Source: an uncultured bacterium
GTDB lineage: Bacteria; Nitrospirota; Thermodesulfovibrionia; Thermodesulfovibrionales; CALJEL01
Assembly (NCBI GenBank): GCA_938074335.1
Contig: CALJEL010000044.1
Coordinates: forward strand, 1-62,483
Length of the DNA: 62,483 nucleotides
Reading direction: 5' to 3'
The translations under genes were made by a program, and so were the position numbers. Below are positions 5,751-53,366 of this stretch, in pieces. How positions within the stretch are numbered: the first letter of the stretch is position 1; each line of letters begins with the position of its first letter. The notes under the pieces are model-generated. The model ran no database searches. It worked only from the letters and a program-made list of their open reading frames with translations, and was not told where the DNA came from.

Positions 5751-5988
5751 GCCAATAGAAAACTGGCAGTGTGCCACAAAGTCTTCTTAGAGCAGCAGGC
5801 AATAACGAACAACAGAGCAGCAGTTAATAACAGAGCAGTAGAGCAGCAGAGCAACAGCGCAGCAGCTTAAACAGTTTGAACAGATTGAACTGTTTGAACT
5901 GTTTGAAGAAATGTCTGCTCTACTGGTCTGCTGCTCTATCAATAAGGACTGCTGCTCTACTGAGGGTTATTAGAAATTTCTATTGACA
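5751..5988. repeat. Composite hairpin repeat element, copy R1
   Basis: The left end GCCAATAGAAAACTGGCAGTGTGCCACAAAGTCTTCTTAGA is shared with the other copies. The core is built from GCAGCAGAGC/GCTCTACTGC words plus an AACAGTTTGAAC/GTTTGAACTGTT palindrome. The right end is AGAAATTTCTATTGAC. Confidence 0.8.
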
Positions 5989-6005
5989 TCTTTTGACATA
6001 CTATA

Positions 6006-7115
6006 ATGCTTAAAAAATTAATCATTGAAAAAATAGCAAGAGAGGGGCCCATCACCTTTGAGACCTTCATGGAGACATGCCTCTATGCTCCTGAATATGG
6101 ATATTATATGAGAGATATTACAGAGATAGGCAGGAAGGGAGATTTTTATACAGCACCCCATCTGCATAGTGCCTTTGGAGCTGCCATAGTAAAACAAATA
6201 GAGGAATGCTGGGTTTTTATGGAAAGACCCGATGAATTTATCATACTTGAGATGGGTGCTGGTATGGGCTATCTTGCAAGGGATATGCTTGATTATATAG
6301 AGAAAAAGGACTTCTATTCTGCAATTAAATACCAAATTATTGAATTAAATCCTTCACTCATTAATAAACAGAAAGAGATACTCAAAGGACATTCAGGCAA
6401 GATCAAATGGTTTAATTCCTTAAATGAGATAGCTCCTTTCAGGGGAGCTGTGGTATCAAATGAATTACTGGATTCCTTTCCTGTGCATATAATTGAATTC
6501 AACAGAGACTGTGTTGAGGAGATATATGTATCCAGTGATGGAAAGGGATTCCTTGAGATAAAAGGACCTTTAAGCAATGGTTTAGAGGAATATATAAGGG
6601 AGTTCTCCGTTGATCTTGCAGAAGGCTCAAGGACAGAAATAAACCTCAGGATAAAAGACTGGTTGAGGGCAATATCAGAGGTCTTAATTGAGGGTTTTGT
6701 CATAACCATTGATTATGGCTATCCTGCCTCACAGTATTACAGTGAGGATTATCCCCGAGGCACGCTTCAGTGTTATTACAGACATCAGAAATCAGACAAT
6801 CCCTATGTCAATATTGGTGAGCAGGATATTACATGCCATGTGAATTTCAGCGCTCTTAAGAAATGGGGTGAGGAGCTTGGTTTTAAAAATACTGGTTATA
6901 CGGCTCAGGGCAGTTTTATTGTATCCATGGGTATAGATGAGATAATTAATGAATTGATAAAACCAGAAGATTATACCTTTGAGGTTGCAAAGATCAAATC
7001 CCTTATACTTCCAGAGGGAATGGGAGAATCCCATAAGGTGATGATCCAGTACAAAGGAAAAGGCAATCCTCAGCTGAGGGGATTTAAGCTAAGGAACGAA
7101 CTCTGGAAGCTCTGA
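6006..7115 (+). CDS. Class I SAM-dependent methyltransferase, MidA/NDUFAF7 (DUF185) family
   Basis: GPITFETFMETCLYAPEYGYY...GRKGDFYTAPHLHSAFG followed by ILEMGAGMGYLARD (SAM-binding loop) is the MidA signature as I recall it. Confidence 0.8.
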   Translation: MLKKLIIEKIAREGPITFETFMETCLYAPEYGYYMRDITEIGRKGDFYTAPHLHSAFGAAIVKQIEECWVFMERPDEFIILEMGAGMGYLARDMLDYIEKKDFYSAIKYQIIELNPSLINKQKEILKGHSGKIKWFNSLNEIAPFRGAVVSNELLDSFPVHIIEFNRDCVEEIYVSSDGKGFLEIKGPLSNGLEEYIREFSVDLAEGSRTEINLRIKDWLRAISEVLIEGFVITIDYGYPASQYYSEDYPRGTLQCYYRHQKSDNPYVNIGEQDITCHVNFSALKKWGEELGFKNTGYTAQGSFIVSMGIDEIINELIKPEDYTFEVAKIKSLILPEGMGESHKVMIQYKGKGNPQLRGFKLRNELWKL

Positions 7116-7869
7116 ATTCCTCAAGCCATTTCAGGCTTTTCAAGAAATGCTCAGGGGTATGGGCCTCTATGGTATATATACAGGGCCTGTCTCCAAGGGT
7201 CTCAAGAAGTTCTATCATATTGAAGGTCCCTTCATCCAGAGGATAATGCTGGTCAGAGGTTCTGTCGTTGTTATGAAGATGCAGCTCTTTTATATAAGGG
7301 AGTGTCTGAGAAAGCCATTCCTTAAGGGATACCTTTGAGAAGAGATTAAAATGTCCTGTATCAAAGCAGAGGCCAATATTCGGGTCATCTATTTCTTCCA
7401 TGAGGAGCCTTAGATTTGCTGGTTCATCCTCAAAGATATTCTCTATTAAAATAAGGAACCTTCCAGATACCTGGCTGAGTATCTCCTTCCATGTCTTTAT
7501 ACTTCCTTCAAGCCAGGGCTCTATCTTCAAACTGTATTTCCATTTTTCATATCCTGAATGAAATACCACAGCCTTTGCACCAGTAGCAGCTGCTATTTCA
7601 GTTATAGTTGAGAATCTCTGAAGTGTAGCCTTCCTCACAAGGGAGTCAACAGCACCAGGGGAAAGGTCCATAAAGGGTGCATGAAGAGTGAGTTCAGGCT
7701 CATAATTAAGTTTTTCTTTTAATGAGGCCAGCTCGCTCAGCTCCACAGTGTCAAGTACAGGGGAGCTGATATAGACCTCTAAATTGATCTTATATTTGTT
7801 GAGCAGGTCCCTGTGTTTGGCAATCTTTTCATAAGGGATATGGGCATGAGGTCTCATAAAGGACCTCAT
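7084..7869 (-). CDS. Xylose-isomerase-like TIM-barrel protein (sugar phosphate isomerase/epimerase family)
   Basis: 261 aa. The motifs [22 protein letters not shown] and ELHLHNN are spaced as in the AP-endonuclease-2/TIM-barrel family. A 4-nt overlap links it to the upstream zinc-ribbon gene. Confidence 0.7.
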
Positions 7870-8123
7870 GCCTTGTCTGTGGTTGATGGAGATTTTTTCT
7901 CTTCTGACTTACCTGAAGAACCATTACCACCATTATCCGAGCCCTTTCTTGCATAGTCCGTCAGGTACCAGCCTGAGCCTCTAAGGATAAATGAGGAGTT
8001 TGAGATAAGTCTTTTCATTGTTCCACCGCAGGCAGGACATTCTTTTACAGGTTCATCACTGAATCTCTGAAAATATTCTCTCCTCTCATTACAGGATGTG
8101 CATTCATATTCATAAATGGGCAT
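7866..8123 (-). CDS. FmdB-family zinc-ribbon protein (CxxC_CxxC_SSSS)
   Basis: [34 protein letters not shown] is the canonical FmdB zinc-ribbon N-terminus. Confidence 0.85.
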
Positions 8124-8228
8124 CTTAAAATCACCTCCAGTTTATATAAGCCTATAAATTCTAATAGATCTAAGCCTACCTTAGGCCTGAGAACTGTCGT
8201 GCAGTAGCACTTTTCGCTAAGCTGTTAA

Positions 8229-9041
8229 CTAAAACTCATAAGAGAAATAGACCTTTATATTCTTCTCACGGGCATATCTTAGAACCTGTGGTGAGGTATG
8301 ATAGGTCACGAGAATCCTTACCTGTTCTTTTGGTATATATTTACTCACTGCCTCTGCCTTCTTAATAAATTCATTAATGTTACTTTTCTTAAGCTGACTC
8401 TTAGCCTCACCGATGATAACATACTCCTTGCCATTTGATCTCCCTTCGCCCCAGATATTAACCTCTATATATCTCTCCTTACCTATTTCCAGGAAGTCCC
8501 TCTTGAGTCTTCCTATCACCTCTATGCCCATTTCTTTTTTGAGAAGGGCAGGTAGTGCTTTGTAAGACTCGTCTTCAAGCCTATAACCAACTGTATGAGC
8601 AAGTCCTCCTACTTCTTCCCTCAGTTCTTTATGGCTCTTCACAAGCCACTGAAGTTCTTCTTCTGTCCTCTTCTGTGCCTCAGCAAGTTCCTCTACCCTC
8701 TGCTCAGTCCTTCTCTGTGCTTCAGCAAGCTCCTGCAAAGCCCTGTCAAGCCTTGAGACCTCCTTCTGCGTCTCCCTCTGTGCCTCAGCAAGTTCCTCTA
8801 CCCTCTGCTCTGTCCTCTTCTGTGCCTCAGCAAGCTCTCCAACTACCCTTTCAAGTCCTGCAATCCTTTCTTCAGACTTCTTCTGTGCTTCTATAAGCTC
8901 GCGAACAATAGCCTTCAGCTCTTCAAAGTCAGATCTCTTAACAGTCTCGGCTATCTCTTCCCGAAAAAGCTCAAAGGCCTTCATAAGAGGAAGCTTGAGC
9001 TCCATTGGAAGTTGCTCTATGGCCTCAAGATAACGGATCAT
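8229..9041 (-). CDS. Coiled-coil repeat protein with a C-terminal restriction-endonuclease-like domain (DUF3782-like)
   Basis: Internal repeats ELAEAQ(K/R)RTEQRVEELAEAQ are mirrored by DNA direct repeats near 8674-8716 and 8778-8822. The C-terminal ~110 aa have alternating beta/alpha character with E...IIGEAK, which is PD-(D/E)XK-like. Confidence 0.7.
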   Translation of the reverse strand: MIRYLEAIEQLPMELKLPLMKAFELFREEIAETVKRSDFEELKAIVRELIEAQKKSEERIAGLERVVGELAEAQKRTEQRVEELAEAQRETQKEVSRLDRALQELAEAQRRTEQRVEELAEAQKRTEEELQWLVKSHKELREEVGGLAHTVGYRLEDESYKALPALLKKEMGIEVIGRLKRDFLEIGKERYIEVNIWGEGRSNGKEYVIIGEAKSQLKKSNINEFIKKAEAVSKYIPKEQVRILVTYHTSPQVLRYAREKNIKVYFSYEF

Positions 9042-9083
9042 ATTTAAAAATATTAACAGAATGGCTTCAAGATATGCAACTTT

Positions 9084-9305
9084 CCGAAAAGTGCCGATAG
9101 AAATTTATAATAATCTTTTCAACAAAACTGGCAGGCTGCCGAAAAGGCTTTACCTGCGACACCTTAATGTAAAATATCTAATAAGCTTACTATACATACC
9201 TGACTTCACCTTGTGGGTAAAGACCTCTTGCTACATGATAAATAAAAATCGTCGCATTGTAAAGACTTTGAGGTAGCCTGCCAGTAGGGTATCGGCAAAA
9301 TAGGG
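9084..9305. repeat. Composite repeat element, copy R2 (near-identical inverted copy of 53144-53366)
   Basis: It aligns end to end with the reverse complement of 53144-53366. By eye I count about 8 substitutions and one 1-nt indel. It contains AAAACTGGCAGGCTGCC ... GGTAGCCTGCCAGT inverted ends, CCTGCGACACCTTA and AAGACTTTGAGG. Confidence 0.9.
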
Positions 9306-9538
9306 ACTTTGAAAACGACCCGTAATCTGACGAAGAAATATATTTTAAATAGTACGACAGTACGACTGTGCGACTGTGTCGCTCTATAGCCTATCGCACT
9401 CTAGCTCTGTAACACTGGTGTGAGGCATACCGCACCATTCTGCCAGGAGTTCACGGACGATAGAGGTGGCCACACAGTATCATTGCACTATATAAGGCCG
9501 CCCTGTAAAGAACAGGGGCAACTATTTTAGTTGCCCGT

Positions 9539-9556
9539 AAAAAGGCAGGAACTGCC
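9539..9556 (-). terminator. Putative intrinsic terminator downstream of the PilZ/J-domain gene
   Basis: On the minus strand: GGCAG-TTC-CTGCC followed by TTTTT. A second perfect 9-bp hairpin, GGGCAACTA-N3-TAGTTGCCC, lies at 9516-9536. Confidence 0.5.
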
Positions 9557-9610
9557 CCACTTCATAGACTTTCTACCGGTAATCTACAGGCTTAAGACCG
9601 AACTCTTTAC

Positions 9611-11284
9611 TTAGCCACAGGCTTCAAGTCCTTCCTTTGCCCTTTTATGAGCTGGTGAGATATTCAATGCCCTCTCAAAGGTCTTCTTTGCCCTTAACTT
9701 CATGTCAAGCCTGAGATAGAGATAACCAAGTTCCGTAACATAATCAGGATTATCAGGCACGAGCTCTATTGCCTTAAGCAAGGCTCGCTCAGCCTCTTTA
9801 TATTTACCCGCCTCTCTAAGGGCAAGGCCGTAATAAAAGTGATATCTGGGTTTAGCAGCATCAAGATATACCGCCTGGCCAAAGGCTGTCACTGCATCAG
9901 TGTAAGCCTTCCTTTGATAAAGCTCCATGCCCTCCTGAAATCTCTGAAATGCTGTATCAGTCTGTTCTGAAGTTCTGGAAAGACCTGAATCGTACTCCTG
10001 TCTCTTCGATTTATCACTGAGGACTGTATAGGCAAGGTTTATCCTTTTAAATATACTTGATAATTTATTTTTTAGATCATCATGACCTATTTTAAAATAT
10101 CTGTCCGGGTGAAATCTTTTAACAAGCCTGTAGTATGCCCTTTTAAGCTCATCACTGGATGAATCCCTTTTAAGGCCAAGTATCTCATAATGTGTCATGC
10201 TTTCACATCTCTGATAAAGATCCTCAACCTCTTTAAGGAATTCAGCATCAATATCACTATTTCTGAGGACCTCATCCATTGATACTGTCTCCTCCCTGTC
10301 AGTCTCCGCTACAGATTCTTTTAATTCTATTATCCTTGTACACAAAAGGGCATAAATGGTCTTTAATGTCTCAAACTGGTTTAAGCCTGAGCTTTTAATT
10401 ATATCATTAATCGTGTTTTTACCATCAACAAGCAGTAAGATCTTCCTGTCGTCTTCATCAAGAGATATGTCCTGAAAAAGATGATAGGGATCAGCTGAAG
10501 GAACGGTTACTGCATTAAGGTCATGACGCTCAGATCTTATGAACTGAAAACTCCCTATAGACTTTATCCCTCTATATATAAGATTTGCAAGGCTCAACTT
10601 CAAGGTTATTATTTCATTTACAGGAAGAGGTCCTTCCCTGAATTCAAAGGTTCCGGTAAGGAGTTTAAAGGTGTTCTTTATCATCTCCTCAATCTGCTGT
10701 CTCACGAGTCTGGGGAGATCTTCAACCTTTAGATAACCTGCCTCTACAAGAACAGCTCCCTGCCTCTTACCTGTTTTTTTCATGAGCTCTACAGAGTGAT
10801 TATAGGCATCTATGGTTATAATACCCTGCTTGAGGAGGAACTCTCCCAGCCTTTCATCTTCAATATTAGAACGGGCAAAGATAGGATCTCCTGATTTTAT
10901 ATATATGGTCTTTTTAATCTCATCAGACTGTATGTCAAGTACCCCTGTTTTCCCAGCCCTCTTGATACCTATCAGTAAATCCCAGAGCCTGTAAATACTT
11001 AAATCTCCCGTTATTGGGCCATCAATAGCAATTCCTGTATTGTCACCTGAGACCCAGACTACATGACCCTTAAGATGATGTCTGTCTATAATTATCTCTA
11101 CAGGCTCATGTGGAGTAAGTACAGGTCTCATCTTTATCCTTATCCCAAAGGGAGAATAATCAATGAGCCTCAATTGATAGGTCTCCTTACCCCTTATCAG
11201 GGTGACAGGTGTCTCTTTTTTATATCTCCTGTATCTCCTCTTTTCATCTATTAGTTTCACGCCTGATTTTGTCTCAAGGGGCAT
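9611..11284 (-). CDS. PilZ - DUF4388 - J-domain (DnaJ) - TPR multidomain protein
   Basis: PilZ motifs RRYRR (RxxxR) and DYSPFG (DxSxxG) are at the N-terminus. A DUF4388-like block follows (GVLDIQSDEIKKTIYIKSGDPIFARSN...LGEFLLKQGIIT). The J-domain is HYEILGLKRDSSSDELKRAYYRLVKRFHPDR. C-terminal TPRs include YHFYYGLALREAGKYKEAERALLKAIEL. Confidence 0.85.
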   Translation of the reverse strand: MPLETKSGVKLIDEKRRYRRYKKETPVTLIRGKETYQLRLIDYSPFGIRIKMRPVLTPHEPVEIIIDRHHLKGHVVWVSGDNTGIAIDGPITGDLSIYRLWDLLIGIKRAGKTGVLDIQSDEIKKTIYIKSGDPIFARSNIEDERLGEFLLKQGIITIDAYNHSVELMKKTGKRQGAVLVEAGYLKVEDLPRLVRQQIEEMIKNTFKLLTGTFEFREGPLPVNEIITLKLSLANLIYRGIKSIGSFQFIRSERHDLNAVTVPSADPYHLFQDISLDEDDRKILLLVDGKNTINDIIKSSGLNQFETLKTIYALLCTRIIELKESVAETDREETVSMDEVLRNSDIDAEFLKEVEDLYQRCESMTHYEILGLKRDSSSDELKRAYYRLVKRFHPDRYFKIGHDDLKNKLSSIFKRINLAYTVLSDKSKRQEYDSGLSRTSEQTDTAFQRFQEGMELYQRKAYTDAVTAFGQAVYLDAAKPRYHFYYGLALREAGKYKEAERALLKAIELVPDNPDYVTELGYLYLRLDMKLRAKKTFERALNISPAHKRAKEGLEACG

Positions 11285-11298
11285 CTTGCTAACACTAC

Positions 11299-12219
11299 CT
11301 ATAAACTCTTTACTGTATTAATCAGGGTATCCCTGTCTTCTACATTATAGACCTTTACATCAGGACATATCCTTTTTATCAAGCCTGATAATACCTTACC
11401 TGGACCTATCTCAACAAAGGTATGAACACCCACCTTGTACATATTCCTTACAGAATCCTCCCAGAGCACTCCTGAATGGAGCTGCCTTAATAAGGCATCT
11501 TTTATTGAAGAGGCATCTGTCCTTGCAATACCATCCACATTACTTACAACAGGTATCAATGCATTATTAAAATTGAATTTTGTAAAAAATTCACCAAGTT
11601 TCTCTGATGCCTTAAGCATCAGTTTTGAATGAGATGGGACACTCACAGCAAGCGTTACCGCTCGCTTTGCACCCTTTTGCTTCAGCTCCTCTACTGCCTC
11701 AAGTACCGCACCCCTTTCACCAGAAATAACTATCTGACCCGGGCAATTGTAATTTGCGGGTGCCACATATCCTGACTTTATATTCCTGCATACATCCTCA
11801 ACTACCTCTCTCTGAAGACCCAGTATGGCTGCCATCAGGCCTTTACCTTCAGGCACAGCATCCTCCATGAAAAGACCCCTTTTTTCAACGATACTCACAC
11901 AATCTCTGAATCCAAGCACTCCTGCAGAAACACAGGCAGTATATTCTCCAAGGCTATGACCTGCAACCATTGAAGGTCTTTTATTATTAAGTTCCATTAA
12001 TCTCAGAGCTGCAACACTTACTGTAAGAATAGCAGGTTGAGTCTTTGATGTCCTGTCAAGAACCTCTCTGGGACCTTCAAAGCAGAGTTTCTCCATATCA
12101 TAACCGAGGACATCTGATGCCTCTTTAAAGACCTCCCTTGTCTCAGGAAAATTTTCATAGAGATCCTTTCCCATCCCCACATACTGGGAACCCTGACCCG
12201 GAAAAACAAAGGCAATCAT
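11299..12219 (-). CDS. fabD: Malonyl-CoA:ACP transacylase
   Basis: FVFPGQGSQYVGMG and the GHSLGEY active-site serine motif. The start overlaps the etfA stop (ATGA). Confidence 0.92.
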   Translation of the reverse strand: MIAFVFPGQGSQYVGMGKDLYENFPETREVFKEASDVLGYDMEKLCFEGPREVLDRTSKTQPAILTVSVAALRLMELNNKRPSMVAGHSLGEYTACVSAGVLGFRDCVSIVEKRGLFMEDAVPEGKGLMAAILGLQREVVEDVCRNIKSGYVAPANYNCPGQIVISGERGAVLEAVEELKQKGAKRAVTLAVSVPSHSKLMLKASEKLGEFFTKFNFNNALIPVVSNVDGIARTDASSIKDALLRQLHSGVLWEDSVRNMYKVGVHTFVEIGPGKVLSGLIKRICPDVKVYNVEDRDTLINTVKSL

Positions 12220-13412: not shown

Positions 13413-13504
13413 TTTCAGTTTCCTCCTTTAAACTTCAGAGCAGCAGACCGGAGTTTGAATGGCACTACTGCTCTAATTCAGCCTATCGTCTGAAGCACCT
13501 CCTA

Positions 13505-14293: not shown

Positions 14294-14380
14294 CTTCCAC
14301 CTCCAGATCCTGAGTGAATAATAAATTACATTTTACCATAACTATCTAATTGAATGAACCTGTAAGATCCGCCCGAAAAG

Positions 14381-14692
14381 AGCTAATAGAAATGCATTTT
14401 CAATGGCGTGGTATGCCTCAAAGTCTTCTTAGACCAGCAGAGCAGTAGAGCAAGTAGCACAGACATTCTTGTCTGTGGCTTACGCAGCAGTTTTTATTAA
14501 TAGACCAGCAGAGCAGTAGAGCAGTAGCTACAACAGTGCGATAGTGCTACAGTGCGACAGTGCTAAAGTAGTGAGTTAGCATGCAAGTGAGCTAAAGTAG
14601 TGAGTTAGTATGCAAGTGAATTAGTGAGTTAGGATTCACTAATTCACTAACTCACTAACTCACTAATTCACTAATTCACTAATTCACTAACT
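14381..14692. repeat. Composite hairpin repeat element, copy R3
   Basis: GCTAATAGAA...TGCCTCAAAGTCTTCTTAGACCAGCAGAGCAGTAGAGC, then GTGCGACAGTGC words, then two tandem 29-nt units (14562-14590 and 14591-14619), then seven tandem 8-nt units YTCACTAA (14635-14690) that pair with the preceding TAGTGARTTAG words. Confidence 0.85.
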
Positions 14693-18051: not shown

Positions 18052-18069
18052 TCAGTTATCTTTAAATAA

Positions 18070-18387: not shown

Positions 18388-18506
18388 CTGTCCTCCTTTT
18401 AAGATTTTTAAGCAACCTCACTGTTACTTTGCGACCGAAAAGTCGCATTATTAAAATACCTGATTGATGCTTTAAAAAGCAACTTTGTCACCTTTGACTC
18501 TATTTT

Positions 18507-18848
18507 GCCATTAGAAAACCGGCAGTCTGCCTCAAAGTCTTCTTAGACCAGCAGAGCAGTAGTGCAGTAGTTTTTATTAAGGAATTTTTTTAATTATTTA
18601 ACTGCTGCGCTGCTGCTCTACTGCTCTGTTATTGTCTGTTGCTCTGCTGCTCTGTTGCTCTGTTATTGCCTGCTGCTCTACTGCTCTATTAAGGTGTCGC
18701 AGGCGGGGTCCCCAGAAAGTCATTAGATTTTCTGGGGTGTTAGTATTGCCTTTAGAGCACGGACTGAAGACAAGCTTCATCCCGTGAACCCCGAAATAAC
18801 GGCATCTGCCAGTTTTGTTGAAGGGGTTATCAGAAATTTCTATTGGCA
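18507..18848. repeat. Composite hairpin repeat element, copy R4, with a ~90-nt insert
   Basis: GCCATTAGAAAACCGGCAGTCTGCCTCAAAGTCTTCTTAGACCAGCAGAGCAG ... TTAAGGTGTCGCAGG [insert 18704-18793] ... CTGCCAGTTTTGTTGAAGG..AGAAATTTCTATTGGC. The listed ORF 18598..18867 lies inside it and is low complexity. Confidence 0.85.
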
Positions 18849-18855
18849 TTTGGGC

Positions 18856-18885
18856 TTGACAAAGCATACAGGATTTTTTGATAAT
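18856..18885 (+). promoter_or_regulatory. Candidate sigma70-type promoter for slp, implying a leaderless or near-leaderless mRNA
   Basis: TTGACA (18856-18861), an 18-nt spacer, then GATAAT (18880-18885). The ATG at 18894 is 8 nt after the -10 element and no Shine-Dalgarno sequence intervenes. Confidence 0.35.
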
Positions 18886-19391: not shown

Positions 19392-19484
19392 TAGTAGTGA
19401 ATTAGTATGCAAGTGAGCTAAAGTAGTGAGGTAGTATGCAAGTGAATTAGTGAGTTAGGATTTTCTAATTCACTAATTCACTAA
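19392..19484. repeat. Short composite hairpin repeat, copy R5
   Basis: TAGTGAATTAGTATGCAAGTGAGCTAAAGTAGTGAGGTAGTATGCAAGTGAATTAGTGAGTTAGGA pairs with CTAATTCACTAATTCACTAA. It sits between convergent genes, and the TAG stop of the minus-strand gene (19481-19483) lies inside the last word. Confidence 0.8.
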
Positions 19485-20506
19485 TCCCTTGTCAATCTCC
19501 TGATTTCTCTGAGCCACCATGGTAAAAGTATGAACCTCACAAGTATACCGAGTATTACAAGGATCAGTCCTGCTCCGATAACATAGACACCTTTATCCCT
19601 CACCACCTCAAGAAGGACCCAGTAGGTATGTCCTGTAACATTAAGGCTGTAGCCATCAAATTTCAATGGATATCTTGAATCACCCTCTGTTATAAGTGTC
19701 CCTGCCTCCTGCGGATTTTTGACCCTGAAAACCTTTATTTCGTAAAATCTATCATTAAGGTCATACTCCTTTGCCGTGATATCACCCCTTTTGATCTCCC
19801 TTGATGGAAGGAGTTTCATGGTAATCCTGTAGGGAAGACCTTCAAGGATCACATAATCTATATTGCCTGCTGGCAGAATCTGGAGGGCAAGGTCTCCTTT
19901 CATAACGACTCTACCAGATGAATCCCTTATCTCAATAGATGGTGCAATATTAAAATTAAGGATATGAAAGAATGTGCCATCAATCCTTTGAGGCGGAAAG
20001 ACCCCAACCCTATAGGTATCCTTAAAATCAGTAAGCAATACCACAGGTTCTCTTGTAAATACAGGTGATGGTGATTCCTGCTCTATGTCAAGAAACCTCT
20101 CCTTAATGGATGGCTTTACATCCATCACACCGAATCTCTTTTGAGACCAGGGGATCTGAAATATATCTTCCTTTCCTGTGAGTATCCTTGTATCCATCCT
20201 CATGGAGGCACTCAAAAAAAATCCTGTTAGAAAGACAATCATACCTGCTGGCAGGATAAACCAGAGGAAAGCGAAAAAAGGGGCCTTTTTTATCCTCTGC
20301 CTGAACTTATAAATCATCTCAATACCGAGGAGCATAATAAAGGCCACAAAAAGAACCTGCCAGATAATATTCCTTCCAAGGCCAGAGACAAATCCTGCAA
20401 AGGCCTCTTTTGACCAGGTACTCCATGTAAGATAATAAATCAGCCATGCCCATACCATGAGCCTTCTTAATTTAATAACCTTATCAATCTTTAAAGGCCC
20501 TCTCAT
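19481..20506 (-). CDS. Integral membrane protein with a large extracytoplasmic domain (ResB-like topology)
   Basis: Several N-terminal TM helices, a ~200-aa soluble region and one C-terminal TM (VYVIGAGLILVILGILVRFILL). A 4-nt overlap links it to the upstream DUF2318 gene. The family assignment is tentative. Confidence 0.6.
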   Translation of the reverse strand: MRGPLKIDKVIKLRRLMVWAWLIYYLTWSTWSKEAFAGFVSGLGRNIIWQVLFVAFIMLLGIEMIYKFRQRIKKAPFFAFLWFILPAGMIVFLTGFFLSASMRMDTRILTGKEDIFQIPWSQKRFGVMDVKPSIKERFLDIEQESPSPVFTREPVVLLTDFKDTYRVGVFPPQRIDGTFFHILNFNIAPSIEIRDSSGRVVMKGDLALQILPAGNIDYVILEGLPYRITMKLLPSREIKRGDITAKEYDLNDRFYEIKVFRVKNPQEAGTLITEGDSRYPLKFDGYSLNVTGHTYWVLLEVVRDKGVYVIGAGLILVILGILVRFILLPWWLREIRRLTRD

Positions 20507-24811: not shown

Positions 24812-24947
24812 CCGTGCGGTATGCCTTACACCAGTCACCTCGCAGGTGAAGGAATTTTATAGGTGAAGTGGTGAAGTGGTGAGTCTATCGCACTGTCGCA
24901 CTACTAAGGTGTCGCTATAAGGGCATTCATACCGCATTCTATCGGCA
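24812..24947. repeat. Composite repeat element, copy R6 (short variant)
   Basis: CGTGCGGTATGCC...CACCTCGCAGGTGAAGG...GTGAAGTGGTGAAGTGGTGAG...TCGCACTGTCGCACTACTAAGGTGTCGC...GGCATTCATACCGCATTCTATCGGCA. It shares TAAGGTGTCGC and TTCTATCGGCA with the other copies. Confidence 0.7.
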
Positions 24948-24982
24948 TCAAAAGAGAATGGATAATTTCATGGCTTCTGGCA

Positions 24983-30537: not shown

Positions 30538-30742
30538 GTACGGAATAGATACCGCCAAACCTTGAAAGTGCGACAGAGCGACAGCACACCTGACGGTGCA
30601 GTGAGTTAGTGAATTAGTGAAATAGTGAATTAGAAAATACTAACTCACTAACTCACTTGCATGCTAACTCACTACTTTAGCTCTGTCGCACTGTAGCACT
30701 ATGGTGTGGCAGACTGACAGTTTTCTATCGGCAAAATAGGGG
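30538..30742. repeat. Composite hairpin repeat element, copy R8
   Basis: GTGCGACAGAGCGACAGC...GTGAGTTAGTGAATTAGTGAAATAGTGAATTAG pairs with CTAACTCACTAACTCACTTGCATGCTAACTCACTACTTTAGCTCTGTCGCACTG. The right end is GGCAGACTGACAGTTTTCTATCGGCAAAATAGGGG. It starts 3 nt after the flaF stop. Confidence 0.85.
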
Positions 30743-43701: not shown

Positions 43702-44112
43702 ACTTAGAAATAAAACAACCCTAACTCACAGAACCTGATATTTGAGCCATTTAAAAATCTCCTCTATCTTATGGTGCTATATCTTATGGTGCTATGATAT
43801 AAATATATTAAAGCTATCAGAAAACTTTTTGAATCTTCAATCCTTATAAAGGTTTATAAAAGATTAAGTCTTAAAAAAAATTTTTGTAAAGATATTGAGC
43901 ACAAAAGGTGTTTAGATTACTATCTTTGATTTTGGGTTTGTTTGTTCCTTAACCTATGAGGTGATAGAAAAAAGTTTTTTGAAAATAAAGGGTTAAAAGC
44001 ATCTTGAATCTCAGCTTTGGAATGAAAAGCTTGAGAACATGATTGATAACAGCCGCAGAAATCTGGTATTGTATTTTTCATAAAAAATGGATTTCAAAAA
44101 AGGAGGCTCTTT

Positions 44113-44307
44113 ATGCCCGAGTTCGAACTAAAGATTGATGGTATGAGCTGTCAGCACTGTGTTATGAGGGTTAAAAAGGCACTTGAGTCTGTAAAGGGTG
44201 TAAGATCTGCAGAGGTGGAGATAGGAAGGGCAATTGTGAGCTGTGATTGTAAAAAAGAAGAACTTATAGAGGCTATCGCAAGGGCTGGTTACAAAGTAAT
44301 AAATTAA
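44113..44307 (+). CDS. copZ: Heavy-metal-associated (HMA) domain copper chaperone, CopZ-like
   Basis: 64 aa with GMSCQHCVMRVKKALE (the MxCxxC motif). AGGAGG lies upstream. Confidence 0.85.
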   Translation: MPEFELKIDGMSCQHCVMRVKKALESVKGVRSAEVEIGRAIVSCDCKKEELIEAIARAGYKVIN

Positions 44308-47385: not shown

Positions 47386-47745
47386 TCAGGCGCTCAGGGC
47401 AGATTTTGCTGTATCAACTATTTTTTCAAAGGCCTTGGGGTCATTAAGGGCCATGTCTGCAAGGACCTTTCTGTTAAGCTCGATCCTTGCCTTCTTGAGT
47501 CCTTCCATGAGCCTGCCATAGGTTATTCCAAGTGCCCTTGCTGCTGCATTTATCCTCACTATCCAGAGGCTGCGCATCTCACGCTTCTTTGCCCTCCTAT
47601 CACGATAGGCATACTGAAGGGCCTTCTCCACAGCACCTGCTGCTACCTTATAGGAACGACTCCTTGCACCATAATAACCTTTAGCAAGTTCAAGAATCTT
47701 TTTATGCCTTATTCTTGTCTTAAAACCACCTTTTGCCCTTGGCAT
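47386..47745 (-). CDS. rplT: 50S ribosomal protein L20
   Basis: [30 protein letters not shown]...[25 protein letters not shown]. Confidence 0.97.
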
Positions 47746-47757
47746 CTTTTCTCCTCC

Positions 47758-47958
47758 TTAAAATGAATAAGGTAAAAGTCTCTTCAGATTTTTGTAGTCA
47801 CTATCTGAAACAATAGCAGACTCCCTCAGCCTTCTTGTCCTTTTTGAAGGCTTACCTGTTAGGAGGTGGCTTTTATTTGCCTTCCTCCTCATTATCTTCC
47901 CAGTTCCTGTGACCTTAAATCTCTTTTTTGCACCACTATGGGTCTTAAGTTTTGGCAT
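47758..47958 (-). CDS. rpmI: 50S ribosomal protein L35
   Basis: [36 protein letters not shown]. Confidence 0.96.
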
Positions 47959-47970
47959 CCCTTGCCTCCT

Positions 47971-48492
47971 TCATGTTCGTTTTTTCTTTTTTATTTGTTT
48001 AATCTCAGTGCTATCCCTGTGAGAAATAATCTCTGCCTTTATTCCAGAAACCTCTTTTTTAAGATCAAACATCTCAATCTCTACCTTATTTAGCCTCTCT
48101 TTAATTTCACAAATATCTTTTTCAACTTTATATACTTTCCCTTTAACCTCTGAAACCTCTTTCTCTACTTCGCCTAAACCCGCCCCGAGTTTATCTTCCG
48201 TCTCTTTTAATCCAGCCCTGAATTCTGCCCCGAGTTTATCTTCCGTCTCTTTTAATCCAGCCCTGAGTTCTACCCTGAGTTTATCTTCCGTCTCCTTTAA
48301 TCCAGCCCTGAACTCTGCCCTGAGTTCTTTTTTCGTCTCTTCATTTGTGGTCTTAATCAGCCTTTTTATATCTTCCTGAGCATCTATTACAAAATTCAGT
48401 TTATGCTGAAAATCCTCAGCAAGGATACCGAGATACCTTTTCAGTTCTTCTTTAAATTCCTCAGCATCTGCCTTTGTAAAATAATCACTCAT
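47971..48492 (-). CDS. Coiled-coil repeat protein inserted between infC and rpmI
   Basis: 173 aa starting at ATG, 1 nt after the infC stop and ending 12 nt before the rpmI start. It contains 15-aa tandem repeats (A/V)E(F/L)RAGLKETEDKL(G/R) and a KKKKRT tail. Confidence 0.65.
   Translation of the reverse strand: MSDYFTKADAEEFKEELKRYLGILAEDFQHKLNFVIDAQEDIKRLIKTTNEETKKELRAEFRAGLKETEDKLRVELRAGLKETEDKLGAEFRAGLKETEDKLGAGLGEVEKEVSEVKGKVYKVEKDICEIKERLNKVEIEMFDLKKEVSGIKAEIISHRDSTEIKQIKKKKRT
48183..48343. repeat. 45-bp tandem repeat (~3.5 units) inside the coiled-coil ORF
   Basis: Units at 48183-48227, 48228-48272 and 48273-48317, plus a partial fourth. Only a few substitutions separate the units, and the period is in frame (15 codons). 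Confidence 0.9.
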
Positions 48493-48493
48493 C

Positions 48494-49000
48494 CTACTTC
48501 CCAGGGGCTATAACCATTGTTATATTACTGCCTTCAATGGTTGGTTTCTTCTCAATAGCAAATTTACCCTCTATCATCTCAATAAGTCTCTCAAAAACCT
48601 TCATCCCGAGGTCAGGTCTGGTTGCCTCTCTTCCTCTGAGCATCATGGTAATCTTTGCCTTGTTGCCATCATCAAGGAATCTCCTTATATTCTTGGCTTT
48701 TAACTGAAGGTCATGGTCATCTATCCTTGGTCTCAGCTTTATCTCTTTAACATCAGCTGTCTTTTTCTGGTGAGACTTCTTCTGCATCTGGTACCTGTAT
48801 TTTCCGTAATCCATAATCCTGCAGACAGGGGGATTGGCATTTGGAGCAACTTCCACAAGGTCAAGGCCCCTTTCCCTTGCAAGGGCGAGCGCCTCCTTTA
48901 TCGGAACAACTCCCACCTGACTGCCATCCACATCAATAAGCCTCACCTCGCTTCTTCTTATTGCCTCATTTACTCTGACTTCCTTTTCTATGAATGTCAC
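48494..49000 (-). CDS. infC: Translation initiation factor IF-3
   Basis: [63 protein letters not shown]. The start codon is GTG and overlaps the thrS TGA stop (GTGA). Confidence 0.95.
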
Positions 49001-50766
49001 CTCCTTGATTTAATTTCCTCTTTGAGGAATGCCAGAAAGGCATCTGCCTCAAAGGGTCCGATGTTTTCTCCATTTCTCTTCCTAACAGTATAACTATTTT
49101 CAGAAATCTCTTTATCACCTATTATAACCATATAGGGCACTTTCTTTAAAGTCATCTCCCTGATTTTATAGCCTATTTTTTCATTCTCAAGCCTCAATTC
49201 AGAACGAATCCCGTTCTCTTTAAGGAACCTGTGAAATTTTGCTGCAGCCTCATTATGCCTTTCACTTATGGGAAGCACAGCCACCTGTACTGGTGCAAGC
49301 CACAGGGGAAAGGCACCTGCATAATGCTCAATAAGTATACCAAAAAATCTCTCAAGAGAACCCATTAATGCCCTGTGAATCATTATCGGTCTGTGATCCC
49401 TTCCATCACTACCGCGATAGGTGAGAGCAAATCTTTCAGGGTTATTGAAATCAACCTGTATGGTGCTGCATTGCCAGGGCCTTCCAAGACAATCCTTTAC
49501 CTTTATATCTATCTTCGGGCCATAAAATACACCTTCACCAGGGTCTATGGAATACTGCAAACCCTTTATCTCAAGTGCCCTTTTAAGGGCATTGGTTGAG
49601 CGCTCCCAGTTATCGGGTGATCCAACATACTTTTCAGGTCTTGTGGAAAGATATATATCATATTCATTGAAACCGAAGGTTTTCAAGATATAAAGTGTGA
49701 AATCAAGGACATGGAGAACCTCTTCCTCTATCTGGTCCTCTCTGCAAAATATATGGGCATCATCCTGGGTGAATCCCCTCACCCTCAGGAGTCCATGAAG
49801 TACACCTGATCTCTCATATCTATAGACTGTGCCAAGTTCTGCAAACCTGATTGGCAATTCCCTGTAACTCCGGAGCTGACTTTTATAAATGCTTATATGG
49901 AAGGGACAGTTCATTGGTTTCAGCTCATAAAGTACTCCCTCTATCTCCATGGGAGAATACATATTTTCTCTGTAATAATCAAGATGACCACTCCTTTTCC
50001 ATAAGTCAAGCCTTGCTATGTGAGGTGTATAGAGGAGTTTATAATCAGCCTTGAGATGTTCATCTCTCCAGAAGTCCTCTATAATTTTTCTTACAATAGC
50101 CCCATTGGGATGCCACAGTATCAGTCCTGAACCTATATCATCATTTATACTGAAAAGATCAAGCTCTTTACCGAGTTTTCTGTGGTCTCTTTTTTTAACC
50201 TCTTCAAGGAAGGTAAGGTATTCCTTTAATTGACTTTCCTCAAAAAAGGCTGTACCATAAATCCTCTGAAGCATCTTGTTTCTCTCATCACCCTTCCAGT
50301 AGGCACCTGCGATACTCAACAGTTTGAAATATTTTATCTTTCCAGCCTTTGGCACATGAGGTCCTCTACAGAGATCAATAAAATCTCCTTCCTCATAAAC
50401 CGTTACCTCTTCATCGGGAATTTCATTAATGAGTTCAATCTTATAAGGTTCATTGAGTCTTTTAAAAAGTTCAAGGGCCTCCTGCTTACTGAGTACCTTC
50501 TTGACAAAAGGTCTGTCCTCTTTGATTATCTTTCTCATCTCATCTTCTATTCTTTTTAGGTCCTCTGGGGCAAGAGGTCTTTCTATATCAAAGTCATAAT
50601 AAAATCCATTCTCTATGGCAGGACCTATGGCAAGTTTTGCTTCGGGGAATAATCTTTTTACAGCATGGGCCATTATATGGGCAGTGCTATGACGGTAAGT
50701 CTCAAGGGATAATTCCTCTGAGAGCTCTGCTTTCTTTCTTGACTGCTCCGGATTATTTATTGACAT
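48997..50766 (-). CDS. thrS: Threonine--tRNA ligase (lacks the N-terminal TGS domain)
   Basis: [34 protein letters not shown] (editing domain), [55 protein letters not shown]. Confidence 0.96.
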
Positions 50767-50791
50767 ATTTCATCCCGTTTATTAGATACCC

Positions 50792-51322
50792 TTAGTTTTT
50801 AAATTCAGTCCTTATTGCCCCCAGAAGTCTCTGTATTGCTCTATCAAGGGCTTCATCAATAATCTTCATTTCATCATCACTGAATCTCTCAAGAACATAT
50901 TCCTGAGGAGGAATCTCTTTTGACCTGCCAATTCCAATCTTCATCCTTATAAAGCCATCACCAATTGCATCAATAATGGACTGAACACCTCTGTGACCAC
51001 CTGATGAACCCCTTTTCCGAATCCTTATCTTACCCAGTTCCATATCAAGGTCATCATGAATCACTACAACATTCTCTGGAGGTATACCCATCTTCATGCA
51101 CAGGGCTCCGATCGCCTCTCCACTCCTGTTCATGTATGTCAGTGGTTTCATAAGTATAATCTCCATTCCATCAATAAATACTTTATTCATCATGTAATTC
51201 CCGAAATCCTTAAGCCGCACATTCCAGAGTCTGCAGAGTCTATCAATGAACATAAAGCCGATGTTATGCCTTGTGAATTCGTACCTTTTCCCGGGATTTC
51301 CAAGGCCAGCAAAGAGCCACAA
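50792..51322 (-). CDS. pth: Peptidyl-tRNA hydrolase
   Basis: LFAGLGNPGKRYEFTRHNIGF...MNRSGEA...VIHDDLDMELGKIRIRKRGSSGGHRG. Confidence 0.95.
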   Translation of the reverse strand: MWLFAGLGNPGKRYEFTRHNIGFMFIDRLCRLWNVRLKDFGNYMMNKVFIDGMEIILMKPLTYMNRSGEAIGALCMKMGIPPENVVVIHDDLDMELGKIRIRKRGSSGGHRGVQSIIDAIGDGFIRMKIGIGRSKEIPPQEYVLERFSDDEMKIIDEALDRAIQRLLGAIRTEFKN

Positions 51323-51973
51323 TTACTTCTTACCCTCTTCAGTCTCTTCCTTCTTACCCTTCTTTATAACCTCAGGCTCTGTTATCTCTGGGGCAGGTGC
51401 TGCTGGAGCAACCTCTTCAACAACAGGTGCTGTAACAGTGGCTATCACCTCTTCTCTGTCTGTGAGTATCTTTATTCCCTCTCCAAGCTTGAGGTCTGAG
51501 ACATGAATGGATTGACCGACTGCAAGGTCTGATACATCTACCTCAATGTGTCCTGGTATCTTATCAGGAAGTGCCTCTATCTCCAGCTCCCTGAGGGCAT
51601 GCTGAAGGATTCCGCCCTGTTCCTTCACACCCTTCGGAATACCTTTTGTAATAACCTTTACTGTAACCCTTACAGTCTCTGTTAAGAGAACCTCCTGAAA
51701 ATCTGTATGCAGAAGCTCTCCTGTTACAGGATCAAGTTGATAGTCTTTTATAACAGCAAGTCTGTTACCTTCAGGGAATTGAAGATTTACAAGGATATTC
51801 TCACCTTTTGTTTTCTTCAGGAGCTTTACGAATTCTGCCTGTGGAATCTTTATAGATTCAGACTTTCCAGCCCTGTATAAGACAGCAGGCAATTCACCGT
51901 TCCTCCTGAGGGAACGAGCAACTCCCTTGCCAGTGGCCTCCCTTTTGTATGCAGTTATAGAAACCCTTTCCAT
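51323..51973 (-). CDS. rplY: 50S ribosomal protein L25 / general stress protein Ctc (long form)
   Basis: GKGVARSLRRNGELPAVLYRAG...HTDFQEV... plus an acidic/Lys-rich C-terminal tail. It abuts pth (0-nt gap). Confidence 0.92.
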   Translation of the reverse strand: MERVSITAYKREATGKGVARSLRRNGELPAVLYRAGKSESIKIPQAEFVKLLKKTKGENILVNLQFPEGNRLAVIKDYQLDPVTGELLHTDFQEVLLTETVRVTVKVITKGIPKGVKEQGGILQHALRELEIEALPDKIPGHIEVDVSDLAVGQSIHVSDLKLGEGIKILTDREEVIATVTAPVVEEVAPAAPAPEITEPEVIKKGKKEETEEGKK

Positions 51974-52023
51974 TATTTCCTCCTCAAAATCTTTATTACT
52001 TTTTTATAAGTGCTGAAGCACCT

Positions 52024-52968
52024 TTATACAAATAGTGAACTTATTGATGTCTCTTCATGAATTCTCTTTATTGCCTCTGCAAGCAATAAGCCAATACTCA
52101 GGACCTTTAACTTCCTGCAGGCCTCCTGTTTACTATCAAGAGGGATAGTATTTGTTACTATCACCTCCTTGATAGGAGAATTATTCAATCTCTCAATGGC
52201 AGGGCCTGAAAGCACCGCATGTGTGCAGGCTGCATTTACTGATCTCGCACCATGCTCTATAAGGGCCTGAGCAGCCAGTGTGGTTGTGCCTCCTGTATCA
52301 ATTATATCATCAAGGATCAGGGTATCCTTACCTTTTACATCACCGATAACATGCATAACCTGTGCTACATTTGCCCTTTCTCTTCTTTTATCTATAATCG
52401 CAAGTGATGAACCAAGCTTTCTGGCAAATGTCCTTGCCCTTTCCACTCCACCTGCATCGGGTGACACTATGACAAGCCTTTCACTGTCATAATGTGACCT
52501 TATATAATCAAGCAGTACAGGCATTGCATAAAGATGATCAACAGGTATATCAAAAAAACCCTGTATCTGGCCAGCGTGAAGGTCCATGGTAAGTACCCTG
52601 TTTGCACCTGCAACTGTTATGAGGTCAGCAACAAGCCTTGAAGATATAGGAACCCTCGGCTGGACCTTTCTATCCTGTCTTGCATATCCATAATAAGGAA
52701 TAACTGCAGTAACCCTCCTTGCAGAGGCCCTTCTCAGGGCATCAATTATTAAAAGAAGTTCCATAATATTATGGTTAACCGGTGCACAGGTTGGTTGAAT
52801 AACAAAGACATCTGTACCCCGAACATTCTCATTAATCTGAACCATTATCTCACCATCACTGAAGGTTGTTACAGTAGCATCGCAAAGAGGCATCCCCAGA
52901 TAAGAAGCAACCTCTTCTGCAAGTTTTCTGTGGGCATTACCTGTTATTATCTTTATTCCTTCTGGCAT
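52024..52968 (-). CDS. prs: Ribose-phosphate pyrophosphokinase
   Basis: The start is taken at [21 protein letters not shown] (52968). The longer listed ORF (to 53076) runs through the tRNA gene. Motifs: [29 protein letters not shown]. Confidence 0.93.
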
Positions 52969-53002
52969 AATTCCTTTCCTTAACTTTATGTCTTTTTTAT
53001 AA

Positions 53003-53075
53003 CTGGGGCGGGAGGATTCGAACCTCCAGATGGGAGATCCAAAGTCTCCTGGCTTGCCCGTTTGCCTACGCCCCA
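53003..53075 (-). tRNA. tRNA-Gln (anticodon UUG)
   Basis: The reverse complement folds as: TGGGGCG / TA / GGC-AAACGGGCAA-GCC / A / GGAGA-CTTTGGA-TCTCC / CATCT / GGAGG-TTCGAAT-CCTCC / CGCCCCA / G. It has a U1-A72 pair and a TTG anticodon. CCA is not encoded. Confidence 0.9.
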
Positions 53076-53143
53076 TTCAGGCTGGCCAAATTTGCAAATA
53101 ATTATAACATAAAGATAAAAATCCTAACAACAAAAAGGCAGAT

Positions 53144-53366
53144 CCCTATTTTGCCGATAGAAAACTGGCAGGCTACCTCAAAGTCTTTACAATGCGACAA
53201 TTTTTATTTATCATGTAACAAGAGGTCTTTACCCACAAGGTGAAGTCAGGTATGTATAGTAAGCTTATTAGATATTTTACATTAAGGTGTCGCAGGTAAA
53301 GCCTTTTCGGCAGCCTGCCAGTTTTGTTGAAAGGATTATTTATAAATTTCTATCAGCACTTTTCGG
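53144..53366. repeat. Composite repeat element, copy R9 (inverted twin of 9084-9305)
   Basis: CCCTATTTTGCCGATAGAAAACTGGCAGGCTACCTCAAAGTCTT ... TTAAGGTGTCGCAGG ... GGCAGCCTGCCAGTTTTGTTGAAAGG ... AAATTTCTATCAGC. It is the reverse complement of R2 apart from a few mismatches. Confidence 0.9.

Follow-up and report, generated by a model that had tools for sequence, protein, structure and literature searches.

The intergenic repeat tracts analysed here lie in a 62,483-nucleotide stretch of DNA (contig CALJEL010000044.1 of assembly GCA_938074335.1; the whole stretch is called the window) and form a repeat family of two layers, a miniature inverted-repeat transposable element (MITE) and tandem arrays of period 8 folded back as hairpins, with target-site duplications (TSDs), empty sites, absence from relatives and altered gene ends. 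Bacterial MITEs (Correia, Nezha, ERIC) are likewise small, non-coding and intergenic, occur in several copies and have terminal inverted repeats, a TSD, a long internal stem and an empty site, but the termini in the window matched nothing in the collections searched, and one subfamily has octamer arrays as its core. Cyanobacteria have been known since 1990 to contain short tandem arrays with hepta- and octanucleotide units; the heptamers, termed short tandemly repeated repetitive (STRR) sequences, were reportedly described by Mazel and co-workers in that year, and the nested small repeats of Nostoc are said to have been treated by Elhai and co-workers in 2008. STRRs resemble the window arrays in having several unit families, an intergenic position, an array and its inverted array as a hairpin, and nesting in other repeats; they differ in that the window unit is 8 nt and not 7 (period 8 in 12 arrays), the host is a sulfate-reducing Nitrospirota and the arrays are embedded in a MITE with TSDs. 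Several intergenic families in both orientations were found in the window, and in one cyanobacterial locus (L210) the window's AGAGCAGC unit was nested between heptamer arrays. REP/BIME sequences are also intergenic, palindromic and mosaic and lie in gaps of all orientations, but REPs are single 20–40 nt palindromes without TSD and with a RAYT, whereas the window has tandem octamers, TSDs and no RAYT; its tracts were not single palindromes with a GTAG head and no TSD, GTAG being present in some units only. BOX elements of Streptococcus pneumoniae have the form boxA-boxB(n)-boxC, with a boxB unit of 45 nt and of one kind. Like the window elements they place conserved end modules around a variable number of tandem modules, the whole being a long hairpin; the 45-nt single-kind unit sets them apart, and there is no sequence relation to the window. 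Rickettsia palindromic elements are unique palindromes of 100–150 nt that can sit in frame in genes. In-frame palindromic insertions of the present kind were seen only in related metagenome-assembled genomes (MAGs; loci L219, L271 and L280), whereas the window copies are all intergenic, and the Rickettsia elements are not tandem arrays.

Paired tandem octamers have also been recorded outside the cyanobacteria. In Geobacter metallireducens, 24 pairs of sites with four tandem GTTGCTYN units per strand at variable distance are given in supplements (Aklujkar et al. 2009, PMC2700814); further classes contain TCTCCGTS[Y] and the heptamer MTYCTGA, the 'class 1 global regulator sites' were read, untested there, as IHF/HU sites, and ISGme8/9 insert at a fixed distance from them. 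The GTTGCTCT/GCTGCTCT arrays of the window fit GTTGCTYN, the comparison being with the published consensus and not with Geobacter sequences; on the same footing a paired octanucleotide arrangement was found at 18602–18687 (...GTTGCTCTGCTGCTCTGTTGCTCT...), facing CAGAGCAGTAG at 18552–18570, and tract 5750–5990 is built likewise. The Geobacter sites as described differ from the window arrays, with no mention of MITE ends, long arrays or other unit families in the same hairpin. Direct repeats of the heptamer TAACTGA are common to Beggiatoaceae, Cyanobacteria and Bacteroidetes, with one inverted case; most of them closely precede a start codon and have a single orientation, and octamers are not mentioned (MacGregor 2015, PMC4679880). 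They are comparable in being short intergenic tandem repeats in distant phyla without a known vector, and the window's TAACTCAC/TAATTCAC resembles TAACTGA, but they are heptamers, almost only direct and upstream of starts. Reports of 6–9 nt repeats in bacteria are rare (PMC4692102), and the array strings of the window were not found in a full-text search of 8 million papers. The arrays represent a variant of something known yet unexplained: they are STRR-like and palindromic, with an 8-nt unit, and no description of them was found beyond the Geobacter supplement. An earlier note on this DNA, made from its letters alone, had not recognised a described family in the tracts; this applies to the termini, which were found nowhere else, but not to the octamer arrays in palindromic form, which have precedents.

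For Geobacter and Beggiatoaceae, arrays of a similar kind have received passing mention. The contig offers clean material on the origin and function of such arrays, since the arrays sit inside a datable vehicle (a MITE with TSDs) and have rewritten two gene ends, and since assemblies at 87–92% identity keep the empty sites, so that fresh insertions can be seen with exact boundaries. The units and the polarity rule described below are common to many Nitrospirota, and one unit (AGTGARTT) is shared with Bacteroidota and other phyla.

The MITE and its insertion sites

The earlier note had described related hairpin tracts filling the intergenic gaps, resembling REP or MITE elements, and this description was borne out. 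Self-BLASTN of the window joined 5750–5990, 9084–9306, 14381–14692, 18500–18848, 19392–19485, 30538–30741 and 53143–53366, leaving 24812–24947 as the only tract on the earlier list without a link; 9084–9306 and 53143–53366 match in reverse complement along 224 nt of non-repetitive sequence, with 96% identity. The motif CCTCAAAGTCTT gave 6 matches at up to 1 mismatch against 0.5 expected from shuffles (5 of the 6 within tracts), TAAGGTGTCGC gave 4 exact matches against 0.36 expected, and the 27-mer terminus gave 2 matches in the window at up to 3 mismatches and 2 further ones at 4. Minimum free energy z-scores, computed against mononucleotide shuffles, ranged from -5 to -11 in seven tracts and from +0.1 to -4.6 in five control spacers; 24812–24950 (z -1.7) and 9307–9445 (z 0.0) folded no better than the controls. 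Family members occupy 7 of the 9 true gaps of at least 200 nt, plus one short gap, in divergent, convergent and tandem arrangement, and the only long gaps without a copy are, as had been stated, those at 28.2 kb and 43.7–44.1 kb. An apparent gap at 1.5 kb is occupied by a small open reading frame (ORF) at 1694–1830 (MKEENLLNRITVNPEVMVGKPTIRGLRITVEQI...), by eye a DUF433-type, antitoxin-like candidate.

Eight tracts had been thought to share their ends. A left-end module was present in six (53144, 9305 in reverse complement, 18498, 5741, 30741 in reverse complement and a degenerate one at 14373) and a right-end module in four (53366, 9084 in reverse complement, 18852 and 5996), and when these six left and four right ends were aligned the cores between them differed. 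Tract 19392–19485 has none of the three boundary motifs attributed to it, and 24812–24947 has TAAGGTGTCGC and a partial right end (TTCTATCGGCA) but not the remainder. The MITE is about 220–256 bp long, and the elements measured 222–355 nt, below the limit of about 600 bp for a MITE, and are non-coding; ORFs of up to 51 aa that overlap them are chance ORFs. The alignment gave the module order left end CCCTATTTTGCCGATAGAAAACTGGCAG, GCT/TCT, (A/G)CCTCAAAGTCTT, variable core, TTAAGGTGTCGCAGG, CTGCCAGTTTTGTTGAA, RGGRTTAT and right end AAATTTCTATYRGCAYTTTTCGG. The terminal inverted repeats are imperfect, with GAAAAGTGCYGATAGAAATTT or CCCTATTTTGCCGATAGAAAAC outermost and a core TGCCRATAGAAA (the inverted repeat can also be given as GAAAAGTGCYGATAGAAA), and TGCCRATAGAAA stands inverted at both ends of the copies named A1, A2, B and C below. 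Internally CTGGCAGGCT pairs with AGCCTGCCAG, AAAGTCTTTAC with GTAAAGCCTTT and GCGACA with TGTCGC; because the inner modules pair with one another, CCTCAAAGTCTT and TAAGGTGTCGC, which had been taken for boundary motifs, are parts of the internal MITE stem.

Two full copies have a non-array core. Copy A1 (53144–53366, 223 nt, plus strand), between dsrD and the tRNA-Gln promoter, is flanked by the duplication CAGAT (53139–53143 and 53367–53371), and copy A2 (9084–9305, 222 nt, minus strand), 96% identical to A1, by ACTTT (9079–9083 and 9306–9310); the two have opposite orientations relative to transcription. The TSDs of the other full-length copies were read by applying the element limits from the 53.1 kb site. 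Copy C (5741–5996, plus strand) has a third perfect 5-bp duplication, CATAC (5736–5740 and 5997–6001), and both its ends are of right-end type, with 15 of 19 end bases matching; the flanks of copy B (18498–18852, plus strand), TTTGA and CTTGA, match in 4 of 5 positions.

The host of the contig is a sulfate-reducing Nitrospirota; the window (41% G+C) carries dsrAB-dsrD, etfBA, flagellar genes, type II secretion pseudopilins and thrS-infC-rpmI-rplT-pheST, and its ThrS is at most 72% identical to those of species representatives, the best being Nitrospirae/Thermodesulfovibrionales MAGs. Orthologous sites were compared in closer relatives (L083, SRR34265295; L199, GCA_046292975.1; L200 and L309, SRR31360863) with 86–92% DNA identity over aligned genes, in more distant ones (L084, GCA_026417875.1; L201) with 77–84%, and, for the etf region, in L310–L312, whose EtfB is 89% identical to that of the window. 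The elements were absent from every orthologous site recovered, and are recently acquired. At 53.1 kb, L199 and L200 have the empty site GGTAATCTGCC|TTTTTATTG (in longer form GGTAATCTGCC|TTTTTATTGTTAAG) between dsrD and the tRNA-Gln promoter, whereas the window, in reverse complement, reads GGTAATCTGCC, element, ATCTGCCTTTTTGTTG, with the element limits GAAAAGTGCTGATAG...CGGCAAAATAGGG followed by ATCTGCCTTTTTGTTGTTAGG; a single ATCTGCC in these relatives corresponds to ATCTGCC-element-ATCTGCC in the window. BLAST homology to both (about 92% DNA identity) ends exactly at 53143, and the element is absent also in L201. The 53.1 kb tract is an insertion with a duplicated target. The checks for target-site duplications and for presence or absence in orthologous gaps, which the earlier note had proposed, have yielded three perfect 5-bp TSDs and empty sites, and the TSDs and the empty site show that the first layer is a new, lineage-restricted MITE.

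At 19.4 kb the convergent genes are 5 nt apart in L083 against 98 nt in the window, where the final few codons of gene 19481–20506 are gone and a TAG from the array serves as its stop. At 24.8 kb about 20–30 nt in L083 and L084 correspond to 137 nt in the window, the empty site in L084 being GGTGCGG|AATGATT. At 14.4 kb the gap is 139 nt in L310–L312 against 393 nt in the window, and the adjoining kinase ends ...EMV-TAA in the relatives against ...EMVS-TAG in the window, AGT TAG being the first octamer. The etfB-etfA spacer at 13.4 kb measures 46 nt without a hairpin in L310 against 92 nt in the window, and at copy B the homology with L083 begins at 18853, just past the element. In the closest relative, from SRR31360863, etfB stands alone on a 903-nt contig (L309:1–903) that extends 73 nt beyond the gene on the upstream side and 41 nt on the downstream side; the contig end runs into GGCTTAAGG-type repeats, so that this relative is not free of such repeats. 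Short-read assemblies of the lineage seem to break at arrays, which are therefore probably under-represented in MAGs. Upstream of etfB in L310 (9925–9950), a relative without the element at 14.4 kb, a solitary CCCGGAAATAGAAATTAT resembles the MITE end GCCGATAGAAATTTAT in opposite orientation and, judged by its letters, could be a relic of a related element or a chance match.

Outside the window the MITE was not recovered. The left terminus gave two matches in a genome contig collection, about the chance number, and the left terminus with CCWCAAAGTCTT gave one match in a metagenome contig collection, which lies inside an ArsR-like coding sequence and is therefore due to chance. Profile scanning of the termini, suggested earlier as a check, was run with nhmmer on 2.96 Mb of fetched loci; models of the left end, of the right end and of the whole element returned the window only, plus chance matches that had been fetched by pattern. 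Distant BLASTN of A1 against 72,556 plasmids gave no match, fuzzy matching of five modules in the relatives found none, and BLASTN of all tracts against relatives and other loci gave array-to-array matches only. The Slp protein of the window had no exact match on record.

Octamer arrays in palindromic form

The cores had been described as hairpins of freely shuffled words; hairpins they are, but the words proved to be tandem arrays of period 8. Tandem Repeats Finder (TRF) reported 12 period-8 arrays of at least 2.5 copies in the window, with up to 7 copies per array. Their density (19.2 per 100 kb) is about 11-fold that in 1.29 Mb of loci from 82 other genomes (1.7 per 100 kb); other periods were enriched less than period 8 in the window, and period 7 was not enriched. 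The unit families are AGAGCARY (the earlier word GCAGCAGAGCAGTAGAGC), AGTGCKAY (GTGCGACAGTGC), AGTGARTT (TAGTGAGTTAG), GGTGAAGT and AGTACGAC, with AGTGAATT and AGAGCAGC as further written-out units. Behind each array comes one made of the complementary unit, and the two together form a hairpin; in several MITE copies such a hairpin takes the place of the core, and elsewhere it stands by itself.

In copy C the core is an AGAGCARY array hairpin whose arms enclose a central 9-mer array (AACAGTTTG). Copy B runs from the left end through an AGAGCAGY/CTGCTCTR array hairpin, TTAAGGTGTCGCAGG and a 105-nt insert (18701–18805), which contains the hairpin CCCCAGAAA..TTTCTGGGG, to the right end. Copy D (14373–14692, plus strand) begins with the degenerate MITE end CCTCAAAGTCTTCTTAGA, followed by AGAGCAGY, AGTGCKAY and AGTGARTT arrays, the last of them a hairpin; it adjoins a histidine kinase/GGDEF gene and replaces its stop codon (TAG 14687–14689, minus strand). 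Copies B, C and D have the junction AAAGTCTT-CTTAGA-(C/G)CAGCAG (SCAGCAG) in common, so that they look like one MITE subfamily whose core may have become an AGAGCARY hairpin and then diverged in the number and order of units. Copy E (30538–30741, minus strand) has a MITE left end at 30714–30741 in reverse complement and a nested hairpin with AGTGCGAC in the outer and AGTGARTT in the inner stem; no recognisable right end was found in it.

The AGTGARTT array hairpin at 19392–19485 stands alone and lacks MITE ends; over 92 nt it shares 93% identity with 14567–14658, and it supplies the TAG stop (19481–19483) of minus-strand gene 19481–20506, so that both stop codons that had been placed within a repeat word were confirmed. 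Array hairpins have themselves been dispersed: 14567–14658 and 19393–19484 are 93% identical, 14541–14591 and 30652–30702 are 98% identical, and the hairpin copies at 14.5, 19.4 and 30.6 kb are overall 89–98% identical. An element of a second type (24820–24956, 137 nt, plus strand) has 9-bp terminal inverted repeats TGCGGTATG/CATACCGCA, GGTGAAGT and TATCGCAC arrays, TAAGGTGTCGC and the partial MITE right end, and is inserted directly after GTGCGG without a TSD. Its 22-nt head GTGCGGTATGCCTYACACCAGT (24814–24835) recurs reversed at 9419–9440, within a tract overlooked before (9311–9445, minus strand) in which AGTACGAC/GTGCGAC arrays face GTCGC arrays and the module GTGCGGTATGCCTCACACCAGT stands in reverse complement at 9419–9440. 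The mini hairpin AGAGCAGCAG...CTACTGCTCT reported for the etfB-etfA spacer is present at 13438–13476, nested inside CTTCAGA...TCTGAAG.

By inspection, 8 of 8 window hairpins begin with the purine-rich unit. An inverted repeat reads alike on both strands, and the purine-first polarity is therefore a true property of the elements. The same order was found elsewhere among the matches listed, 15:1 in AGAGCAG pairs and, by our own reading, about 22:1 in AGTGARTT-type pairs.

Other genomes were scanned with three consecutive units, and the match numbers of both scans are not to be read as enrichment, their taxonomic bias and the co-occurring arrays being the readable part. AGTGARTT x3 matched at least 113 loci, among the matches listed mostly from Bacteroidota (Mucilaginibacter, Hymenobacter, Saprospiraceae, Lewinellaceae) and also from Acidobacteriota, Verrucomicrobiota, Planctomycetota, Nitrospinota and a Chamaesiphon. 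The listed loci were also enriched in further arrays of period 8, at about 13 per 100 kb, and of period 7, at 16 per 100 kb; at least 40 inverted array pairs were present, and 84% of the array clusters were intergenic, with no preference for a gap type. YTGCTCTR x3 matched at least 107 loci, and 18 of the first 80 belong to Nitrospirota or Thermodesulfovibrionales; in these the element has the same build as in the window, with an AT-rich loop between an AGAGCAG array and a CTGCTCT array. In L229 such a hairpin is followed by a TGTCGCAC array, again of the window vocabulary, and in L255 (a Geobacter MAG) an AGAGCAG/CTGCTCT pair is about 110 nt apart. Array hairpins of the window kind occur in dozens of independent assemblies. 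The AGAGCAG/CTGCTCT hairpin was also seen in frame within long ORFs of other Nitrospirota/Thermodesulfovibrionales MAGs (L280:3177–3260, L219:6419–6450, L271:1647–1720), the hosts being a 951-aa nuclease-like protein, an 890-aa P-type ATPase and a 166-aa protein, with added peptides such as TEQQSNRATEQQ...STALLRYCAT.

Origin of the tracts

The tracts are probably non-coding, recently acquired repeats, a MITE mobilised in trans together with palindromic octamer arrays shaped by slippage, both selfish or neutral. The MITE, whose insertion duplicates 5 bp of target, would be moved by a DDE-type transposase encoded elsewhere in the genome; CC...GG tips with a 5-bp duplication would presumably fit IS1380-like elements of the ISfinder family table. 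The arrays sit at the centre of the MITE stem in one subfamily or as stand-alone intergenic insertions; slipped-strand mispairing would let them grow, shrink and shuffle, template switching within the extruded hairpin would keep both arms matched, and whole hairpin modules, given copies that are 89–98% identical, are copied between loci. Both layers would be tolerated only between genes, with no host function, and the by-products for the host would be long DNA or RNA hairpins in untranslated regions, promoters pushed away from their upstream sequence and, in two genes, an original stop replaced by one in the first octamer. Several points tell against this account. The window encodes no transposase, no autonomous partner with the MITE ends was found in any collection searched, and copies were counted within the 62 kb window only. 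The stand-alone 19.4 kb hairpin and the 24.8 kb element have no TSD and are left unexplained by a DDE cut-and-paste route. Neither the recurrence of unit sequences in distant phyla nor the near-invariant purine-first polarity is predicted by slippage alone, and both speak for a process of greater specificity or for a function under selection. The main uncertainty lies in the route of array hairpins to new sites and in the constancy of units and polarity. Tentatively, and with a clearly smaller probability, the palindromic octamer arrays might be a distinct cross-phylum class of hairpins, an 8-nt sister of the cyanobacterial STRRs that draws on a few common units (AGAGCARY, AGTGCGAC, AGTGARTT) and keeps to one polarity (purine-rich unit toward the loop), created and spread by a dedicated enzymatic process and entering MITE cores, spacers, gene ends and, in frame, genes. 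A specific mechanism behind the polarity and the common units, should there be one, would amount to a novel route of repeat formation.

HUH enzymes insert beside a short target word without duplication, and GTAG is the conserved REP head. An enzyme of this kind (RAYT/TnpA-REP or IS200/IS605-type TnpA) might move the hairpin modules (the stand-alone arrays, the array cores and the 24.8 kb element) as single-stranded DNA in a REP/BIME- or PATE-like manner. The insertions at 19.4 and 24.8 kb without TSD are consistent with this, as are the close identity of the hairpin copies at 14.5, 19.4 and 30.6 kb, the GTAG in many units (CAGTAGAG, AAGTAGTGAG) and the GTGCGG that precedes both copies of the module TATGCCTYACACCAGT, with the empty site GGTGCGG|AATG in L084; but a flank seen in two copies is a lead and not a result, REPs, unlike these tandem arrays, are single palindromes of 20–40 nt, TSDs do flank the copies that carry MITE ends, and, as had been noted for transposases, none of the about 60 ORFs of the window encodes a transposase, a RAYT, an integrase or a Y1/HUH domain, so that this route is judged unlikely. 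Lower still is the probability that the arrays are selected binding sites of a DNA- or RNA-binding protein with an 8-nt footprint (a nucleoid-associated protein or global regulator), acting by DNA bending or post-transcriptional control, a role that has been guessed at for the paired GTTGCTYN sites of G. metallireducens and for the TAACTGA repeats of Beggiatoaceae. The same units recur with the same polarity across many genomes, arrays are almost always intergenic and the window CTGCTCT/GTTGCTCT arrays fit GTTGCTYN, but at least four unrelated unit families occur within one 62 kb window, the sites are not conserved among relatives at 87–92% DNA identity, the neighbouring genes have no common function, arrays lie in frame inside ORFs of other Nitrospirota, and no candidate binding protein was found.

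Hardly more credit, indeed slightly less, is given to the hairpins as cis-acting RNA elements (terminators, attenuators, 3'-end stabilisers) or outward promoters that spread by their usefulness, roles of which the terminator, the stabiliser and the promoter had been proposed earlier. Their stems are very stable, several lie at gene 3' ends (14.4, 19.4, 30.5 and 53.1 kb), and the right end is 10–45 nt from three start codons. No U-tract follows the stems, however, so that they are not intrinsic terminators; a terminator scan of the window listed no array hairpin, and gene 9611–11284 has a clear terminator of its own at 9516–9536, outside the repeats. A role as promoter donor was ruled out in the two cases that could be checked, the Slp promoter (TTGACA-18-GATAAT, 18856–18885) and the tRNA-Gln promoter, both of which are sited immediately beyond an element and are retained in relatives where that element is missing; no -35/-10 pair is conserved in the right end, where TTGACA occurs in 1 of 4 copies. 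The more stably folding strand tracks the orientation of the element and not the direction of the gene, orientation bias is absent, and a test for RNA-level selection (folding and G-U pairs on both strands) gave no link to the direction of transcription. At the gathering score, Rfam 15 returned only tRNA-Gln in the window, the tracts giving sub-threshold microRNA-hairpin noise, and a known RNA family was rejected on this ground. Two readings made by eye were likewise dropped: TGGCAG...GC in the left end as a sigma-54 promoter has the wrong spacing, and stops in all six frames, which would account for AGTGARTT, fail as a general explanation for AGAGCARY and AGTGCGAC. That the similarity is low-complexity composition, which the earlier note had named as a possible undoing of the family, or an assembly artefact has next to no probability; tandem repeats can mislead assemblers, and contigs of relatives break beside such repeats (L309), but this reading is refuted by two copies 96% identical over 224 nt of non-repetitive sequence, by precise ends, TSDs and an empty site in an independent assembly, and like array hairpins occur in dozens of independent assemblies.

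Annotation and other features of the window

In practice the elements break short-read assemblies of Thermodesulfovibrionales MAGs and create spurious ORFs. A simple ORF caller (at least 60 aa) reported 18598–18867, which lies wholly in copy B, and 9061–9276, nearly all of it in copy A2; both are artefacts of the elements and could be misannotated as genes. The longest-ORF call for prs (52024–53076, 350 aa) overruns tRNA-Gln(TTG) at 53003–53075, and the genuine prs is the 314-aa version starting at 52968, which matches L199 and L201.

Tandem repeats of other kinds were present as well. A 45-nt repeat (48182–48341, 3.6 copies, 89% matches) lies within a 173-aa ORF (47971–48492) in the infC-rpmI interval, which has no Pfam match and whose orthologues in L199 and L201 measure 153–155 aa, so that the repeat number varies in frame. 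A 105-nt repeat (8657–8888, 2.2 copies) lies within the coiled-coil ORF 8229–9041. In the 43.7–44.1 kb gap without a family member, a perfect 15-nt direct repeat (TATCTTATGGTGCTA, 2.1 copies, 43765–43795) adjoins a small heavy-metal-associated (HMA) gene (44113–44307), an orthologue of which is annotated in L199; from its arrangement the repeat could be an operator. In the dsrB-dsrD spacer (53676–53719) a hexamer-array hairpin, (AAGGTC)2.5 ... (AACCTT)3, is kept in L199 at about 92% DNA identity, unlike the octamer elements, and is replaced in L201 by a different hairpin; in the dsr mRNA it may act as a functional stem.

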